DNA of 64,000 bases from Candidatus Heimdallarchaeota archaeon (lineage in GTDB: Archaea > Asgardarchaeota > Heimdallarchaeia > Hodarchaeales > Hodarchaeaceae), in the NCBI GenBank assembly GCA_020353515.1, contig CP070695.1, positions 569,622 to 633,621 of the forward strand, in the 5' to 3' direction. The notes under the pieces were generated by a model that was not told the DNA's origin, searched no databases, and saw only the letters and a list, made by a program, of their open reading frames with translations. Shown piece by piece: positions 49,743 through 57,104 of the stretch. Positions within the stretch are counted from its first letter, which is position 1, and each line of letters opens with the position of its first letter. The translations under genes and the position numbers were made by a program.

Positions 49743-50237
49743 CTATCCTCCTAAGAATCCTTGCTTTCTTAGCAAGTACACGCCCATAATTACCGCTATA
49801 GTGGTTGCTGACATGAAGCCTAGCACTAACATAATTCCGAGAATATGACCAATGGCCTCAGCAGCATCATATCCCTCAAAATCGAATGATTCTTCCCAAC
49901 TAGAACCACTATACCAGAAATATGAATAATCATATGTAGCAGTTAAATACGAGACCCGAGTGGTTGGAGAAAGACCTGTTGGATATTCAACGATATAAGA
50001 ATAGCTGAACTCGATACCAGGAGGCAAGAGATTCCAAGTTTCTGAAGTAGAACCAGAAATAATGGAAAAATTCTCCATAGGATACACATCGTTAACATCT
50101 ACATTGAATGCGGTTGTGTCCCCAGGATTCTTCACATAAATGGTTACTTTATAGTAATTCTCACCATCCATCAATACTTTCGTTACCTCTTTCTTTAGAA
50201 CTACTAATGCTCCATATTCTATACCAGAATAAAAAAT
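49743..50237 (-). pseudogene. TRAP-beta/BatD-like Ig domain plus C-terminal TM, apparently 5'-truncated
   Basis: Frame is open up to 50237 (..GALVVLRKEVTKV) with no signal peptide; VTIYVKNPGDTTAFNVDVNDVYPMENFSIISG..W..LPPG. Confidence 0.55.
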
Positions 50238-50643
50238 TCAATCCTACTTAGCTTCTTATAGTGCTCCATGAGTCTTGCCAACTTGTTTGTACTAAATTAG
50301 GATTTTTTTGGAGAAAGTATGTTTAAAAATATTATTAATCAAATTCTTTTCTTTGTTCCTATAAAAGTAGAGTAAATCCTATACACATGCCCGAGAGTAT
50401 AAGAGTAACACTTAAGATTCCTCATTCATGTTTTCTTGTTTTTCTAAACTTGTTTCATTTTTTTTGAATTATTATTAGGATGGATTTGGCATAACTGCAT
50501 ACACATGGATGTGTTTTCCTTCCCTAATGATATCTTTAAATAATGACCAAGAGGAAGAAGAGCTTGGAGTATTTCTGAAAAGCAATCCTTTTCGCTCTAT
50601 TGATATAGAATTTTTTAAAATTTTGTTATTAAATAGGTTTTTT

Positions 50644-51771
50644 GTGTTGTCGGAACCCAACTATAGTTTCACAGATCGCATCAAAGCATCCTTACGGAAG
50701 AAGGTTGCAAAAGAGGTCGATTCCTTTCAAACTTTTGATCAAGAATATAAATTATCCTCTCATCCCATCAAAAAGACATTTATCGCGATTGGTAAACTGA
50801 ATAAGGTTCATAAAGGACGAATAGGGATTGCTGAGATAGCAGAAGAAGTAGAACTATCTGAGAATGATGTCGTTTTCATTATTCAAGAGTTTATTGAACA
50901 ACGGCTTATAGAGGGCTATATTGAAGAGAATCAAACCCCTGAAGACTTAAGTGATGACCTACTCGTTTTACAACAAGATTATTACTGGTGTCAAATCGAT
51001 CAAATGGAACATGATATCTTTGAGCTCCACTTTCAATGTACTCGTTGTCTTCGCTTTATTTGCAGTGATTGTTATCAGAAAGGAAACAGTGATACATGCC
51101 CCTATTGTTCTGGATCTCTCATACCTGTTCCACGAATATTTAAGAAAGACGATGTTCAAACAACCTATGCTCCAGATAATGTAAAAGCATCGTTAAAAGA
51201 CTATTACGAGACTCAAAGGTACAATGTTTCCCGACAAGGAGTTAAGGCGGTTTCACGAAGGGTTATTGATGATTTAAAAGGGCTAAATCTGAAAGAGCGG
51301 TTATCTTATTCCATATTAAAGACTAAGACACGAACATATTTGGATTATCGAAAACATGAGAAAGCAATCTCTGAAAATGAAAAGCTTGTTATCGATACGA
51401 TTTCAGCTCTGTACGAAATAGAAGAAAGAAGTCAAATTCCAGTCAAGAGAATAGCCATAATAGCAAAGCTGGAAATAAATTTAACACATGAAATTATTAG
51501 CCGATTGATCAGTCAACAATCACTCCAAGGATTTATAGAAACGAGTGGAACGTATGATACAATAGATGATGATGTGTTGATTCTTGGTTCTGATAAATAT
51601 CATTGTGAGATTCACAATGAGGATTTACCCGTTTCCAAAGCCCACTATCAATGTACTAATTGCTTCAGGGCAGTCTGTGAGAACTGCTATTCTGAGATGA
51701 AGGACCAAGGGATGGCTAATTGTCTATTCTGTGGGAGTAGCATGACTTTCTTCCCTGATAGCTTTTCATAG
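50644..51771 (+). CDS. Tandem [PCI-like wHTH + RING-like Cys-rich Zn finger] x2 protein
   Basis: Two IxxIAxxxxL..I..FI/LI....I.G.I winged helices, each followed by Cxx(D/H)..CxxC-x4-CxxC..CxxC; start probably GTG 50644 or TTG 50647. Confidence 0.75.
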   Translation: MLSEPNYSFTDRIKASLRKKVAKEVDSFQTFDQEYKLSSHPIKKTFIAIGKLNKVHKGRIGIAEIAEEVELSENDVVFIIQEFIEQRLIEGYIEENQTPEDLSDDLLVLQQDYYWCQIDQMEHDIFELHFQCTRCLRFICSDCYQKGNSDTCPYCSGSLIPVPRIFKKDDVQTTYAPDNVKASLKDYYETQRYNVSRQGVKAVSRRVIDDLKGLNLKERLSYSILKTKTRTYLDYRKHEKAISENEKLVIDTISALYEIEERSQIPVKRIAIIAKLEINLTHEIISRLISQQSLQGFIETSGTYDTIDDDVLILGSDKYHCEIHNEDLPVSKAHYQCTNCFRAVCENCYSEMKDQGMANCLFCGSSMTFFPDSFS

Positions 51772-51872
51772 TTTCTTTACTAGATTACACTAAGATTAAT
51801 AGTAAATCTCGTTAATTGAGCTGATGACTATTCCGATGGAAAAATTACATGTAACTTTTTGGAGAGGTTCTG

Positions 51873-53774
51873 TTGTCTTTAGGTAATGAATATAGAAAGT
51901 ATGAAAAACTGAAACAAGCTTACCCAGAAAAATTTGTATCGGAAAAAAAAATTTTTAGTAATATCCATCGGGGAGACCGAATTTTTATCTCAACTGCTTG
52001 TGCTGAACCACAATACCTGATTGGTGCTCTCGCTACATATTTAGAATCACATCCCAAGGCTTTTTTCGATGCAGAAGTGTTATCATGGTGGAACTTAGGA
52101 GTTGCTCCATATGCTGAAGCACGATACCAGCAAAATTTTCGATATAACTCTTTCTTTGTAGCAAATCCTACCAGAGATTCAGTAAACATTGGTTTATCCG
52201 ATTACACCCCCATTTTTCTTTCTAACACTCCAAAATTATTTTCTAATGGCCAAGTACCCATTGATGTTGCTTTAATACAGTGCTCTCCTCCTGATGACCA
52301 TGGTTATGTAAATCTAGGTGTTTCAGTAGATATTGTCAAAGCAGCAGTTGAAAATACCTCATTAATCATTGCTCAATTAAATTCATTCATGCCTCGTATT
52401 CATGGTGATGGCTTCATTGATGTTAATGAAATTGATTATTTCATAGTACACGATGAACCAATTCTTGAATATAATCCAGTACCAACAGATGAAGACTACT
52501 ATCTTGAAATTGCTTCAAAAATTGGTAATTATGTCGCACGTCTAATTCAAGATGGTGATACTATTCAAGTGGGTTATGGTTCTATTCCTGATGCCGTCTT
52601 GTCGAACTTAAGTGAAAGGGATCTTGGAGTCCACACGGAGTTAGTTTCGGATGGACTCATAAAATTGATTAAGAATGGTATCATTAACAATTCTAAAAAA
52701 ACACTCAATCGTGGTAAAACCATTGGATCCTTCTGTATGGGGAATAAAGATACCTATGAGTTTATACATGATAATCCTTCCATTGAACTTAGAAGGATAG
52801 ACTATACCAATGATCCTTTAGTAATTGCTCGTCATGATAACATGGCAGCTATCAATAGTGCCTTACAGATTGACCTTACAGGGCAAGCTTCGGCTGAATC
52901 AATAGGAAGAACCTTTTATAGTGGAATTGGAGGACAAGCGGATTTTATGCGTGGTGCTATTCTAGCTAAAGGTGGTAAGTCGATACTAACATTACAGTCT
53001 ACTGCTGGACATGGTAAAGTATCTAGAATTGTCCCATTCCTCTCAGAAGGGGCTGGTGTTACTCTTAATCGGGGGGATATTCATTATGTAGTAACAGAAT
53101 ATGGTATTGCATACCTGCATGGGAAAAATATTCGGGAGCGTGCTATGCAGCTCATTTCAATTGCCCATCCACGATTTAGGTCTGAACTCATAAAAAAAGC
53201 CAAGCAATTCAATCTCATTTATAAAGATCAAGCTTTTGTCCCTGGTAAGAAGGGGGAGTATCCTGAGCATCTAGAAACTTGGAGAACAACGAAGAAAGGG
53301 ATGGAAATTCTCTTAAGACCAGTAAAAATAAGTGATGAGCCATTACTCAAAGACTTCTTTTATGACTTAACTGATCAATCACTGTACCGTCGATTCATAT
53401 CTGTTCGAAAAGACGTTCCCCACAGTCGTTTACAGGATTTTTGCATAATAGACTTTTCAAAAGAAATGGTAATAGTCGCTGTAATTCAAGAAGAAGCACT
53501 AGAGACCGTTGTGGGCGTCTCTCAATATGGTATTGATACGAAGTCTCATACCGCTGAAGTTGCTTTTGTTGTGAGAGATGATTATCAAAATAAAGGGATT
53601 GGAAGTGAATTAGTACATTATTTGACATATCTAGCTAAGATGATTGGACTTTTAGGTTTCACAGCTGAAGTCCTTGTAGAGAATCGAGGAATGCTGCATT
53701 TATTCGAGAAGAATTTCCCTGACTTGAATAAGAGAATTGTCGATGGTGTGTATGAGCTAAAAATGCGATTTTAG
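51873..53774 (+). CDS. Acetyl-CoA hydrolase/4-hydroxybutyrate CoA-transferase fused to a Pat-type GNAT
   Basis: HTELVSDG, SGIGGQADF and VVTEYGIA motifs; GNAT region LLRPV..AEVAFVVRDDYQNKGIG..VLVENRGML. Confidence 0.92.
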   Translation: MSLGNEYRKYEKLKQAYPEKFVSEKKIFSNIHRGDRIFISTACAEPQYLIGALATYLESHPKAFFDAEVLSWWNLGVAPYAEARYQQNFRYNSFFVANPTRDSVNIGLSDYTPIFLSNTPKLFSNGQVPIDVALIQCSPPDDHGYVNLGVSVDIVKAAVENTSLIIAQLNSFMPRIHGDGFIDVNEIDYFIVHDEPILEYNPVPTDEDYYLEIASKIGNYVARLIQDGDTIQVGYGSIPDAVLSNLSERDLGVHTELVSDGLIKLIKNGIINNSKKTLNRGKTIGSFCMGNKDTYEFIHDNPSIELRRIDYTNDPLVIARHDNMAAINSALQIDLTGQASAESIGRTFYSGIGGQADFMRGAILAKGGKSILTLQSTAGHGKVSRIVPFLSEGAGVTLNRGDIHYVVTEYGIAYLHGKNIRERAMQLISIAHPRFRSELIKKAKQFNLIYKDQAFVPGKKGEYPEHLETWRTTKKGMEILLRPVKISDEPLLKDFFYDLTDQSLYRRFISVRKDVPHSRLQDFCIIDFSKEMVIVAVIQEEALETVVGVSQYGIDTKSHTAEVAFVVRDDYQNKGIGSELVHYLTYLAKMIGLLGFTAEVLVENRGMLHLFEKNFPDLNKRIVDGVYELKMRF

Positions 53775-53900
53775 GAAATAACCAATTGATTAAAATAGTA
53801 GTATAGATGTGTATTCATACTACGAAATGAGCCTTTGTCTGAAGCGATCTGCTATAATCAGCTTCAATGTGCTCCCATTAGGTAAATTTTCGCCACACTG

Positions 53901-56060
53901 TTGCTGGTGGGTTCTAGACTGAAGGAAAAACCATCTATACAATATTTGTTTGAACCTCGATCCATTGCGATTATAGGATGCTCAACCAATCCCAATAAAA
54001 TAGGTTACAAAGTGCTAGATAACATTGTTTATAGTAAGTATCAAGGGAAGATTTATCCTGTAAATCCCAAGGGAGGAGAAATTCTAGGTATTCAATTATT
54101 TCGGTCAATAGAAGAAATTGATGGTGATGTTGACCTAGCTACAATCTGTATTCCAGCGAGATTTGTCTTTAATGCTGTTCAAGAATTAGCAACAAAGAAC
54201 TGCAAATTTCTATCAATCATTACATCAGGATTTTCTGAGATTGGTGACATTGAGGAGGAAGAGAAGATTGTAAGATTTGCACACGAAAATGGCATGCGTG
54301 TTTTAGGGCCTAATATTTTTGGGATTTATTCAACAAAATCACCAGTAAACGCGACATTTGGCGCCAAGGATATTGAACCTGGTCATGTTGCGATTGTCAC
54401 CCAAAGTGGTGCACTTGGTGTGGCTATGATTGGGAAGACCGAAACAGAAGGTATTGGCCTTTCAGCAATTGTTAGTGTTGGGAATAAGTCAGACATTGAT
54501 GAAGCTGATCTTATTGAGTATCTGATGAATGATGAATTAACAAAAGTTGTTTTACTATATATTGAGGGCATTAAAGAAGGAGAAAAACTAATTCGTATCC
54601 TCAGAAAAGCAACAAAAATAAAACCAATTATTATCATAAAATCAGGAAGATCTAAAAGAGGTGCACTTGCAGCAGCCTCACATACAGGTTCTCTAGCTGG
54701 TGAAGATAATGTCTTCTCTGATATAATGAACCAAGTTGGAGCTTTGAGAGCTTTAAGTGTTCAAGAAGCCTTAGATTGGGCAAAGTTTCTTTCTATTCAG
54801 CTTCGTTTGCCAAAAGGGGAGAATGCGGTTATTGTAACAAACGGGGGGGGAATTGGCGTCTTAGCAACAGATGCATGCGAGATGTATAAAGTTAATCTCT
54901 ATGATGATCAAGATGTACTAAAAGAAATCTTTGGACCTGTTACCCCCTCATTTGGGTCAACAAAAAATCCTGTTGACATCACAGGGGGAGCATCAAATGA
55001 TTTTTATGAACAAGCTCTCCAAGCTGCAATAGATAGTGAGGATATTCACTCAATTATTTGTTTGGGTTGTGAAACAGCTATTTTTGATTGTGACCAATTG
55101 TCCGCAGTTGTTCAAAAGAAATTTATTGAGGCCAAGCCAACCAAACCCTTAGTATTTTCATTTTTTGGTGGTTCTGATTTTGAACGTGGTCTTTTTAGTC
55201 TAAAAAGTCTGGGGGTTCCTATCTTTCCTGATGTTTATCAAGCAGTGTCATGCTTAGGGGCTGTTTATTCAAATTATCGTACACTATCTTATACAGAAGA
55301 ATTTGCTGAACACAAAGAACCAGAACTTAATATTGACATTTCAACAATTCAGGAAGTAATTCATGAGGTTAGGGAGAAAGGAAGACATTTCTTGTTAGTT
55401 CCAGAGGCAATGAGGGTGATGGAAGCTGCTGGAATTCCTATGCCTAAAAGCTATGTAGCAAAAAATATTAAAGAGGCTATCGAATTCGCAGAACAGATAG
55501 GATACCCTGTTGTAATGAAAATCGTTTCTAAAGACATAATTCATAAATCAGATGCAGGGGGCGTTGCTCTTAACTTAGAGAATCGAGAAGAAGTTATCGA
55601 CGCATATGAAGCTATTATGAATTCTTGTCTGAGTTATAAACCTGATGCAGAGATCCAAGGCGTTGAAATTGTAACCATGATTAAAATGGATGAGGCAATC
55701 GAAACCATAATTGGGGCACGTATTGACCCAATATTTGGCCTCACAGTCATGTTTGGTCTTGGAGGGATTTATGTCGAAGTGCTAAAAGATGTTGCATTTA
55801 GAGCTGTACCACTTACATGGAGAGACGCGAATGAGATGGTTAAACAGATTCGATCCTATCCGCTCCTATTAGGCGTACGTGGTGAAGCTAGGAAGGATAT
55901 TGAGGGCTGCATCGAGGTTGTAATGCGACTAAGCAAAATTATTCAAACAATTCCTGATATCTCTGACATTGAAATTAATCCCTGTTTAGCTTTTGAACAG
56001 GCAAAAGGCGTTCTCTGTGTGGATGCCCGAATTCTACTCACTCCTCCATCTATTAGGTGA
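53901..56060 (+). CDS. ADP-forming acyl-CoA synthetase (fused alpha-beta ACD)
   Basis: GPN, QSGALG, SVGNK, SHTGSL (phospho-His), NPVD, HKSDAGGV and IEINP motifs. Confidence 0.95.
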   Translation: MLVGSRLKEKPSIQYLFEPRSIAIIGCSTNPNKIGYKVLDNIVYSKYQGKIYPVNPKGGEILGIQLFRSIEEIDGDVDLATICIPARFVFNAVQELATKNCKFLSIITSGFSEIGDIEEEEKIVRFAHENGMRVLGPNIFGIYSTKSPVNATFGAKDIEPGHVAIVTQSGALGVAMIGKTETEGIGLSAIVSVGNKSDIDEADLIEYLMNDELTKVVLLYIEGIKEGEKLIRILRKATKIKPIIIIKSGRSKRGALAAASHTGSLAGEDNVFSDIMNQVGALRALSVQEALDWAKFLSIQLRLPKGENAVIVTNGGGIGVLATDACEMYKVNLYDDQDVLKEIFGPVTPSFGSTKNPVDITGGASNDFYEQALQAAIDSEDIHSIICLGCETAIFDCDQLSAVVQKKFIEAKPTKPLVFSFFGGSDFERGLFSLKSLGVPIFPDVYQAVSCLGAVYSNYRTLSYTEEFAEHKEPELNIDISTIQEVIHEVREKGRHFLLVPEAMRVMEAAGIPMPKSYVAKNIKEAIEFAEQIGYPVVMKIVSKDIIHKSDAGGVALNLENREEVIDAYEAIMNSCLSYKPDAEIQGVEIVTMIKMDEAIETIIGARIDPIFGLTVMFGLGGIYVEVLKDVAFRAVPLTWRDANEMVKQIRSYPLLLGVRGEARKDIEGCIEVVMRLSKIIQTIPDISDIEINPCLAFEQAKGVLCVDARILLTPPSIR

Positions 56061-56066
56061 ATTAAA

Positions 56067-57104
56067 TTGAAAAAAATTATTATGGCAAGTACAAGTAAAG
56101 AAGCAGGTAAAACAAGTATTATTGTAGGTTTAGCTAAAGCTTTAAATAAAAAAATTGGCTATATGAAGCCCTTTGGCGATCGCCTCCTCTATCAAAAGAA
56201 ACGTCTTTGGGATTATGATTCTGCTCTAATCACAAACGTGTTAGAGTTAGATGAAACACCAGAGGATATGTCGCTTGGTTTTGCTCACTCAAAACTTCAC
56301 TTCATGTATGATGAATTATCTACAAAAGAGAAGTTACAAGAAATCACAAATAATGTTAGTAGAGATAAAGACATCATTTTTATTGAAGGTGGGAGAAACT
56401 TGAGTTATGGCCGTTCAGTTCATCTTGATCCTTTAACTGTAGCGAGGAGTACAGGAGCTCAATTAATCTTGGTTTTTAGTGGCCCTGACGAATCGATCAT
56501 CGATGATATAACCTTTTTCACTAAATGCGTCAATACACAAGATGTTGATTTTCTCGGTGTTATTATAAACAAAATTAAAGACATTGAAAACTTTAAGGAG
56601 CTTCATTTAGATACTTTTAACGAATTAGGCGCAAAGGTTCTTGGAATTATACCACACAAGAAAGAATTAACTCATTTTTCCATGGATTATCTAAACCGAT
56701 CCTTGATGGCAAAAATTCTTGCAGGTGAAAAGGGTCTTCAAAATAAAGTCGAACGCGTTTTTGTTGGTGCAATGTCAGCTGCTCATGTCACTAAAAGGCC
56801 ACTTTGGTCTTTAGAAAACAAGTTAATTATTACTCCCGGTGACCGCGCTGATATGATACTTGCTGCCTTAGAATCATCTACTGCAGGGATTGTTCTTACC
56901 AATAATATACTCCCCTCTGATCCAATTATTGAATCAAAAGCTAATATGGCAAATATCCCATTACTATTGGTTTCGACAGATACTTTTGCCACAGCGAAAC
57001 ACATTGATGATATGGAGATTACATTCACCAAAGATGAAACAGATAAGATCACCTTACTAGAAGAACTCGTAAAAGAGAATATAGATTTAAGTGTCTTCTT
57101 CTAA
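56067..57104 (+). CDS. BioD-like P-loop + DRTGG protein (phosphotransacetylase N-terminal regulatory module, no catalytic PTA domain)
   Basis: AGKT, GYMKPFG, IEGG, VGAM and ITPGDRAD motifs. Confidence 0.88.
   Translation: MKKIIMASTSKEAGKTSIIVGLAKALNKKIGYMKPFGDRLLYQKKRLWDYDSALITNVLELDETPEDMSLGFAHSKLHFMYDELSTKEKLQEITNNVSRDKDIIFIEGGRNLSYGRSVHLDPLTVARSTGAQLILVFSGPDESIIDDITFFTKCVNTQDVDFLGVIINKIKDIENFKELHLDTFNELGAKVLGIIPHKKELTHFSMDYLNRSLMAKILAGEKGLQNKVERVFVGAMSAAHVTKRPLWSLENKLIITPGDRADMILAALESSTAGIVLTNNILPSDPIIESKANMANIPLLLVSTDTFATAKHIDDMEITFTKDETDKITLLEELVKENIDLSVFF

Follow-up and report, generated by a model that had tools for sequence, protein, structure and literature searches.

What does a protein made of two winged helices (wH) and two RING-like zinc fingers do in an archaeon that also encodes a ubiquitin-type system? 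The question is raised by a gene in a stretch of 64,000 nucleotides from a Candidatus Heimdallarchaeota archaeon (the whole stretch is referred to here as the window; positions 569,622-633,621 of one 4.94-Mb contig, G+C about 36%). The organism belongs to the Hodarchaeales, a group counted among the nearest known kin of eukaryotes within the Archaea. The gene lies on the forward strand at 50647..51771 and encodes a protein of 374 amino acids (aa), called the twin protein below, in which a wH followed by a RING-like finger occurs twice. It is a shorter paralog of a UFL1-like wH/finger protein whose gene occupies the ubiquitin-ligase (E3) slot of the ubiquitin operon of this lineage. Based on these observations, we propose, tentatively and with doubt somewhat outweighing confidence, that the twin protein serves the ubiquitin-type system of the lineage as an E3-like adaptor, with finger 1 as the better candidate for docking the ubiquitin-conjugating enzyme (E2) and finger 2 as a degenerate copy. 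The architecture, its conservation, the predicted cross-brace fold of the fingers and the paralogy with the operon protein are firm. The RING-like finger is known in kind; the duplicated, wH-fused architecture is new.

The duplication is apparent when the protein is compared with itself. In a BLASTP search, residues 56-211 of the 420-aa open frame that holds the gene pair with residues 223-420, at 25% identity and E 9e-15. Each half consists of a long helix, a wH and a Cys-rich, eight-ligand finger in the AlphaFold2 (AF2) secondary structure, and the two tandem homologous modules are joined by a strongly basic, conserved linker. Residue numbers from here on are those of the 374-aa protein (database gene call P0002) unless the 420-aa frame is stated. 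Module 1 opens with a long helix (residues 8-37; 50668..50757, +), modelled with a predicted local distance difference test score (pLDDT) of about 50-55, which pairs in the self-comparison with the helix preceding wH2. It continues with wH1 (residues 40-110; 50764..50976, +), a PCI/UFL1-DDRGK1-like domain with an acidic recognition helix and wing (PCI stretch at 103-140 of the 420-aa frame; pLDDT 72-84), and with finger 1 (residues 111-162; 50977..51132, +), which reads C115-x2-D118-x3-H122-x8-C131-x2-C134-x4-C139-x2-C142-x8-C151-P-x-C154. The basic linker and the long helix of module 2 (residues 163-240; 51133..51366, +; pLDDT 31-54 at 165-230) lead to wH2 (residues 241-315; 51367..51591, +), which bears the second PCI stretch and a TYDTIxDD wing, has a pLDDT of 76-85 and matches solved structures at Z 7-9 (model range 239-315). 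The protein ends with finger 2 (residues 316-370; 51592..51756, +), the degenerate copy, which reads C320-x2-H323-x9-H333-x2-C336-x2-C339-x4-C344-x2-C347-x11-C359-L-F-C362. The mean pLDDT of the whole-protein model is 66.9, and that of the wH domains 72-85.

Conservation follows this plan closely. In an alignment of 27 family members, 45-87% identical to the protein of the window, the residues that are invariant or nearly so are C115, D118, H122, C131, C134, C139, C142, C151 and C154 in finger 1 and C320, H323, H333, C336, C339, C344, C347, C359 and C362 in finger 2, and the ligands obey the pattern C-x2-[D/H]-x12-C-x2-C-x4-C-x2-C-x8/11-C-x2-C. The wing insert of module 1 is prone to insertion and deletion and is missing in about a third of the members; that of module 2, TYDTIxDD, is conserved. 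A PVPRIFK motif spans the border between finger 1 and linker, PVP ending the finger and RIFK beginning the linker, and invariant residues extend from there through the linker (51124-51366 with the whole motif; P160, V161, P162, F165, D169, Y186, G198, S203, D209, K211, R235, K236 and E238). The linker carries a family mean net charge of +9.5 and is modelled by AF2 as disordered; invariance in a segment modelled as disordered suggests that it binds a partner. An earlier description of this locus, a sequence-only reading, had recognized two homologous wH + finger modules, and both the self-comparison and the family alignment bear it out. The two wH strings that it quoted, the wing motifs DLSDD and TIDDD and both Cys/His/Asp clusters are all present in the protein.

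Are the fingers RING-like cross-brace domains, or zinc ribbons set one after the other? Finger 1 was modelled alone with AF2 (residues 100-163, 48-row alignment), giving a pLDDT of 87.6, with 92-97 in the core. The sole helix of the model has the third ligand pair at its N-terminus, which is the treble-clef arrangement of RING domains. With high confidence, the finger is predicted to be a cross-brace, RING/ZZ-like two-zinc domain. A Foldseek search of the Protein Data Bank (PDB) with finger 1 returned the ribosomal protein aS34 first (9fhl_a; TM 0.72/0.65, root-mean-square deviation (rmsd) 2.1 Å, 60 columns), followed by the RINGs of RING1B, RNF4 and c-Cbl and the ZZ domains of p62, p300 and CBP (probability 0.8-1.0; E 0.007-0.2, values to be expected with 60 residues). 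Sequence comparison points to RINGs. The finger profile, run against PDB sequences, found the RING-like finger of CesA at E 1e-4, the TRIM32 RING at 3e-4, the C4C4 RING of NOT4 at 2.7e-3, c-Cbl at 1e-2 and aS34 at 0.018; at E<1e-2 it finds RINGs and not ZZ domains. The N-terminal zinc finger of CesA (PF14569; 1weo, 8vi0) aligns with identical ligand spacing, C-x2-C ... C-x2-C-x4-C-x2-C-x11-C-P-x-C, the C-P-x-C included. CesA, the CNOT4 RING (1e4u) and the TRIM32 RING (2ct2, 5fey) are the best profile matches (E 1e-4 to 3e-3), and in all of these, as in our model, the helix appears to start at ligand pair 3. Unlike C4C4 RINGs, the twin protein has Asp or His in place of Cys as second ligand and an invariant Arg at the second position past ligand 4, and it lacks a Trp in the central helix.

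Several other zinc-binding families were compared with the fingers. The ZZ domain family (PF00569) gave no match at E<=10, and the last ligand pair is C-P-x-C or C-L-F-C, not H-x3-H. FYVE domains carry the hallmark motifs WxxD, R(R/K)HHCR and RVC and bind phosphatidylinositol 3-phosphate (PI3P). The central C-x2-C-x4-C-x2-C spacing is common to them and the fingers, but the corresponding stretch here is [HK][FM]QC..C.RF[IV]C, with no basic cluster, and FYVE_2 scores 13.4 against a cut-off of 27.2. For IBR, C1, B-box and FYVE alike, Pfam scores are far below cut-off and none leads the fold lists. No IBR/RING2-type chain was among the top 50 of any of three fold searches, and the likeness to the IBR of HOIP is local and non-significant (E 8.8). 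The sequence-only reading had proposed a cross-brace RING variant and named sequential ribbons as the outcome that would speak against it. IBR-type fingers are absent from the fold lists and a cross-brace is predicted; the proposal holds in its predicted fold and in its CesA-type C4C4 spacing, and fails as regards membership of a Pfam RING family at cut-off.

What kind of winged helix accompanies these fingers? Pfam PCI (PF01399) matches two stretches of the protein with 30.4 bits (gathering cut-off 22; E 4.4e-7), the better of which covers only profile positions 38-75 of 84, that is, the wH core. The helical-repeat (TPR/HEAT-like) half of a PCI domain is missing: ahead of wH1 there are only about 39 residues, which form one long and one further helix, and ahead of wH2 there is just one long helix. 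Segments this short leave no room for a helical solenoid, which rules out a full PCI domain. The AF2 model was compared with solved structures by VIA-align. The wH superposes on that of DDRGK1 (8c0d_E, from the UFL1/DDRGK1/UFC1 complex) with Z 10.1 and rmsd 1.1 Å over 59 residues, on the UFL1-DDRGK1 chimera 8b9x_B with Z 10.2, on the proteasome lid (22mm_a) with Z 8.3 and rmsd 2.0 Å, and on PCID2 (3t5x_A) with Z 7.8 and rmsd 1.3 Å; CSN, eIF3 and ESCRT-II are also among the matches. DNA-binding wH proteins are found as well, PefI at Z 8.8 and IdeR and MarR at Z 7-8, with rmsd 1.9-3.3 Å. Since Z 7.0-10.2 (rmsd 1.1-2.0 Å) for the PCI and UFL1/DDRGK1 types against Z 7-8.8 for the DNA-binding ones is a tie within the error of the tool, fold alone does not decide the subtype, and the assignment holds at the level of wH subtype only. 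The recognition helix H3 and the wing carry a mean net charge of -6.4 in wH1 and -4.0 in wH2 and are acidic in all 27 members, which favours a protein-binding over a DNA-binding wH.

The wH are thus closest among solved structures to those of UFL1/DDRGK1 and of PCI proteins (Rpn, CSN, eIF3, PCID2), with two differences: PCI domains have the helical-repeat half that the twin protein lacks, and UFL1 and DDRGK1 have no zinc fingers. The UFL1 model E3_UFM1_ligase (PF09743) does not match the twin protein at E<=10, and whole-protein Foldseek against the PDB gives nothing at E<=1e-3, only weak rows for the wH of MarR, UFL1 and CSN. In whole-protein phmmer and profile searches of PDB sequences, a match to N-myristoyltransferase (E 0.01) was discarded as compositional, arising from the acidic wing, and nothing else was significant. 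The PCI-type wH of the sequence-only reading therefore survives as a sub-domain, with Pfam PCI above cut-off and PCI-type or UFL1/DDRGK1 structures as the matches of lowest rmsd, and not as a full PCI domain. With the helical half missing, the lid-, CSN- or eIF3-like scaffold role suggested on the same ground has no basis. The competing outcome considered there, a wH of DNA-binding type, fits at higher rmsd than the PCI/UFL1 types.

The relatives of the twin protein place its finger in a broader family. When 1.84 billion representatives were searched with a profile, 90 proteins scored E<=1e-3. Some of them have a single wH + finger module preceded by transmembrane segments, others are fused to beta-propeller/WD40 or TPR domains, and others again are multi-module proteins about 585 aa long; many have a C-terminal finger only, including a surface protein of 1650 aa. 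In the window's own genome the finger hidden Markov model (HMM) picks out eight proteins. The one that matters most here is a 585-aa paralog with two RING-like fingers (C1:1379852-1381606; finger HMM E 1e-7 and 3e-9), whose C-terminal wH + finger module aligns with the entire module 2 of the twin protein. It has an N-terminal array of further wH, a PCI match on a wH, and a sub-threshold score for E3_UFM1_ligase (PF09743; 16.1 vs 23.2 bits). Its gene lies in an operon (C1:1374000-1392000) that encodes a GNAT protein (168 aa), EAP30 (Vps22/36-like), a Band7/SPFH protein, the 585-aa paralog, a 104-aa zinc ribbon, a ThiF-type ubiquitin-activating enzyme (E1), a ubiquitin-like protein (Ubl), a 262-aa protein of unknown nature, E2, a JAB/MPN protein, a second such unknown of 266 aa, two Arf-family GTPases and a 632-aa protein. 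The genes stand in the same order in all 10 of the other genomes that were compared (11 of 11 loci with that of the window's genome). Among the operon genes no RING-like candidate was found besides the 585-aa paralog, its 104-aa neighbour being a zinc ribbon, and the paralog sits in the E3-ligase slot of the lineage's Ubl-E1-E2-JAB operon. It is probably one of the 'E3 UFM1-ligase-like' proteins of Asgard archaea covered by a survey based on IPR018611 (PMC9192718). The twin protein shares with it the finger family, a PCI match on wH and the lineage, and differs in having two modules only, no PF09743 signal and other gene neighbours, where the paralog has a wH array and a fixed place in the ubiquitin operon. 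The ubiquitin-system context assumed by the sequence-only reading is real: this Hodarchaeales genome has ubiquitin, E1, E2 and JAB genes, the E2s numbering four to five (among them C1:3982098-3982469, 3884656-3885123, 1385125-1385592 and 3971609-3971869).

The same finger also occurs at the cell surface. Three single-pass surface proteins (C1:1932240-1933190, 1134755-1135894 and 3821850-3823565) end in it at their extreme cytoplasmic C-terminus, with the motif FFCQxDxxxHPxTDxAYxCxxCxRxxCxxC...CPxCxGxLxxIQ. One has a CBM96 domain and one double zinc ribbons, and they are laid out like receptor-type transmembrane RING proteins. A C-terminal cytoplasmic finger on a single-pass protein is the architecture typical of transmembrane RING E3s.

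Do the fingers retain the positions through which RINGs contact E2 enzymes? Across 197 fingers from 143 proteins (counted as sequences, not as independent events), the second residue after ligand 1 is I, L, V or M in 185, and the residue after ligand 7 is Pro in 132. Finger 1 of the twin family has I117 and P152 each in 25 of 27 members and K, N or R at 155 in 23 of 27, the protein of the window having Ser at 155. In finger 2 the first position is I/L/V322, L/M/I360 replaces the Pro after ligand 7, Gly363 follows ligand 8 in 19 of 27, and the ligand C347 is lost in two of 27. This asymmetry suggests one E2-docking and one structural finger: finger 1 appears the better docking candidate, and finger 2 structural or degenerate, as judged from these residues. 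A precedent is offered by srfp, the RING E3 of Caldiarchaeum subterraneum, whose activity depends on an Ile and an Arg at the equivalent positions (PMC5654768). Like srfp, which works with a eukaryote-like set of E1, E2 and ubiquitin, the twin protein carries an archaeal RING-type finger, and finger 1 of most orthologues has equivalents of the Ile near ligand 1 and of the basic residue that follows ligand 8. Unlike srfp, a single small operon-encoded RING-H2 (C3H2C3) with a helix Trp, the twin protein is C4C4-like, duplicated, wH-fused and encoded elsewhere; the two were compared by description only.

The first ligand pair shows a further peculiarity. Where ligand position 2 is Asp, a His stands at +4 in 103 of 113 fingers (50989-51012 in the window); the same His occurs in only 1 of 28 fingers with Cys at ligand position 2 and in 13 of 53 with His there. 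The zinc may be bound by His122, Asp118 then belonging to the second shell; alternatively, the two may form an Asp-His pocket or an Asp-His-zinc arrangement. The covarying Asp...His could thus mark an unusual zinc site or a pocket. Several polar residues around the same first zinc knuckle are invariant without being required as ligands (Q116, Q119, H122, Q130 and R136).

Based on these data we propose a model in which finger 1 would dock a charged E2 through the hydrophobic residue two positions after ligand 1, the Pro after ligand 7 and, in most orthologues, the Lys, Asn or Arg after ligand 8. Finger 2, without the Pro, without the basic residue and sometimes without a ligand, would act as its structural partner, in a division of labour comparable to that of the RING1B-BMI1 heterodimer. 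The two acidic wH and the conserved linker would be contact sites for partner or substrate proteins and not for DNA. E2 binding, ligase activity, the division of labour between the fingers and any substrate are inferred in this model, and the twin protein is a plausible candidate for a ubiquitin-ligase-like adaptor. A bolder version, which we rate as quite improbable, would have the two fingers form an intramolecular RING/RING-like pseudo-heterodimer on a UFL1/DDRGK1-type wH, representing a prokaryotic stage at which wH scaffolds, RING-less in modern UFL1, still used RING-like fingers. Such a pseudo-heterodimer might act on the ribosome, because the top structural match of the finger is the ribosomal aS34 and the aS33 fold is also found in UFL1.

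What weighs against the E3-like reading? It is solely the paralogy with the 585-aa operon protein that links the twin protein to ubiquitin. Some 760 kb separate its gene from the nearest ubiquitin cluster, and it never adjoins ubiquitin genes, its conserved neighbours being an M24 peptidase, a TIM-barrel protein, an acetyl-CoA hydrolase/transferase-GNAT fusion and an ADP-forming acetyl-CoA synthetase. E2 genes are present in 83 of 83 genomes of the class and the finger family was detected in 23, too few for a core partner of the system. All Pfam RING models fall short of their cut-offs (PF25080 19.6 vs 27; PF14445, Prok-RING_2, 14.4 vs 22.4; PF14634 12.7 vs 27.9; PF14447 7.4 vs 27); the PF25080 (zf_RING-like) score falls on finger 2, and the closest Prok-RING_2 score among relatives is 21.3 vs 22.4 bits. 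The Trp of the central helix of canonical RINGs is absent, the position four residues after ligand 6 being G, S or A, and in the protein of the window itself the linchpin residue is Ser155, a position that is Lys or Asn in most orthologues. Finally, in a VIA-align 2 comparison of the finger with the PDB, ribosomal aS34 comes top (Z 7.9) and ZZ domains (Z 5.0-5.6) stand slightly above RING and U-box domains (Z 4.0-4.7). The ZZ matches (p62, BIG, PRT1, KCMF1, HERC2, p300, Nbr1) have rmsd 2.4-3.0 Å over 48-52 residues. Several of these points would be accommodated by a non-catalytic adaptor or reader, whose fingers would bind a peptide, for example a protein N-terminus or the modifier itself, in ZZ-like fashion in place of an E2, with the wH oligomerising or docking on a partner. 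ZZ domains that read N-degrons and tails are the best eukaryotic structural matches, invariant non-ligand polar residues surround the first zinc knuckle, and the missing Trp and the linchpin Ser are in keeping with such a reader. We nevertheless regard a reader as unlikely. The ZZ-to-RING gap in Z, under about 1, is a tie, and the profile search, the lack of a PF00569 match and the RING-like C-P-x-C at the last ligand pair speak for RINGs; moreover, the paralog holds the E3 slot of an operon with no other E3 candidate.

The prominence of aS34 invites a ribosomal role, in which the aS34-like finger and wH resembling the ribosome-docking ones of UFL1/DDRGK1 would settle on the ribosome with the basic linker on rRNA, and the protein might tag ribosomal proteins. 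aS34 is a RING-like two-zinc protein at the position of eS10, and the aS33 fold has also been seen in UFL1 (PMC11698992). In fold comparison aS34 stands apart, at Z 7.9 vs 5.6 for the next match and first in Foldseek too; finger 1 ends in CPYCSGSLIPV (window 51097-51132) and aS34 (9fhl chain a, Saccharolobus solfataricus) in CPYCGTELVPI, sharing the C-terminal motif CPYCxxxL(I/V)P(I/V), and the linker is strongly basic. Elsewhere the likeness in sequence to aS34 is not significant, at E 0.018 with the profile and 0.47 with the single sequence, the third ligand pair is spaced differently, and aS34 is a stand-alone ribosomal protein of 72 aa restricted to Thermoprotei (PMC11698992). A Z of 7.9 is within reach of unrelated small domains, and no ribosomal genes lie near the twin gene, which makes this role decidedly improbable. 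The gene's own neighbourhood suggests yet another function, that of a zinc-dependent winged helix-turn-helix regulator of the downstream acetyl-CoA hydrolase-GNAT, ADP-forming acetyl-CoA synthetase and DRTGG genes. The twin gene is co-directional with and directly 5' of the GNAT fusion set in six of nine relatives examined and in the window, MarR/IdeR-type wH are among the fold matches, and one orthologue is named 'predicted transcriptional regulator' in one source. This, however, would have to operate with recognition helices and wings that are acidic in all 27 members and unsuited to contact with the DNA backbone, and with wH that fit the PCI/UFL1 types at lower rmsd. The two flanking intergenic regions (50175-50646 and 51772-51872) were searched for inverted repeats resembling operators, and the only palindromes in them are AT-rich and of low complexity. 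The synteny is confined to one narrow family, in which it may simply be inherited; it is broken in three of nine loci, and the distance to the GNAT fusion varies from 74 to 425 bp, one locus having a 5-kb insertion. We hold a regulator to be the faintest of prospects.

What would an E3-like adaptor mean for the history of ubiquitin ligases? To our knowledge, the diversification of E3s before eukaryotes is poorly known, and the sole archaeal RING E3 to have been reconstituted is that of Caldiarchaeum. The finger family of this lineage, about eight proteins in the genome, is placed on wH, on TPR domains, on beta-propellers and on the cytoplasmic tails of surface proteins. Within it the twin protein is a compact, soluble member that is nearly universal in its Hodarchaeales family, and hence a convenient test object. 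If the twin protein binds an E2, the diversification of E3s, possibly including the pairing of RINGs, began in archaea, and wH of PCI/UFL1 type were already linked to ubiquitin-type chemistry. If E2 is not bound, the finger family is a new protein-binding zinc module.

The extent of the gene could be fixed from its relatives. The open frame spans 50509-51771 (+). Because the N-termini of 27 orthologues align at MSEPN.../MPxxN..., the start given by TTG 50647, and the 100% identical database gene call agrees, the start was set there; the stop codon is at 51769-51771. The 46 in-frame codons upstream are not conserved, and the open frames of relatives reach only 366-408 aa. The sequence-only reading had identified the right gene and started it one codon further 5', at a GTG at 50644. 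The protein is acidic, with a pI of 5.3. All its named homologues come from metagenome-assembled genomes (MAGs) of Hodarchaeales, 'Heimdallarchaeota' or 'Promethearchaeota', and apart from the one regulator annotation they are called 'hypothetical'. The twin protein found no family in NCBIfam and a best score of 0.79 in the ESM Atlas, below the useful range; a literature search found no published description of a twin wH-finger family.

The full-length twin protein is present in 19 of the 22 genomes of one Hodarchaeales family, two of the 19 copies being cut at contig ends; the three genomes without it are 71-87% complete. At E<=1e-5 it is absent from the 62 genomes of the class's other families, and at the same threshold the finger family goes undetected in 61 of these 62, which divergence may partly explain. 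The co-directional genes downstream (51873-57104, +), syntenic with the twin gene in most relatives, form a Pat-like set of the acetyl-CoA hydrolase/transferase-GNAT fusion, the ADP-forming acetyl-CoA synthetase and a CobQ-like/DRTGG protein. The M24 peptidase and the TIM-barrel protein are divergent and lie on the other side. A seawater RNA-seq library contains a 263-nt contig that matches the module 2 region (51455..51717) with 100% identity. As a single contig from one environmental library, for which carry-over of DNA is possible, it is a weak hint of transcription, and it shows no transcript ends, strand or co-transcription with the downstream genes. The DNA runs in which the locus occurs are sediment metagenomes. 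An ABC transporter pair and a TRAP-beta-like gene of the window are variable insertions. The latter (49743-50174, -) gave no tblastn match in the nine relatives' loci examined; it encodes a 143-aa protein with a C-terminal transmembrane segment that scores 37.3 vs 22.4 bits with Pfam TRAP_beta.

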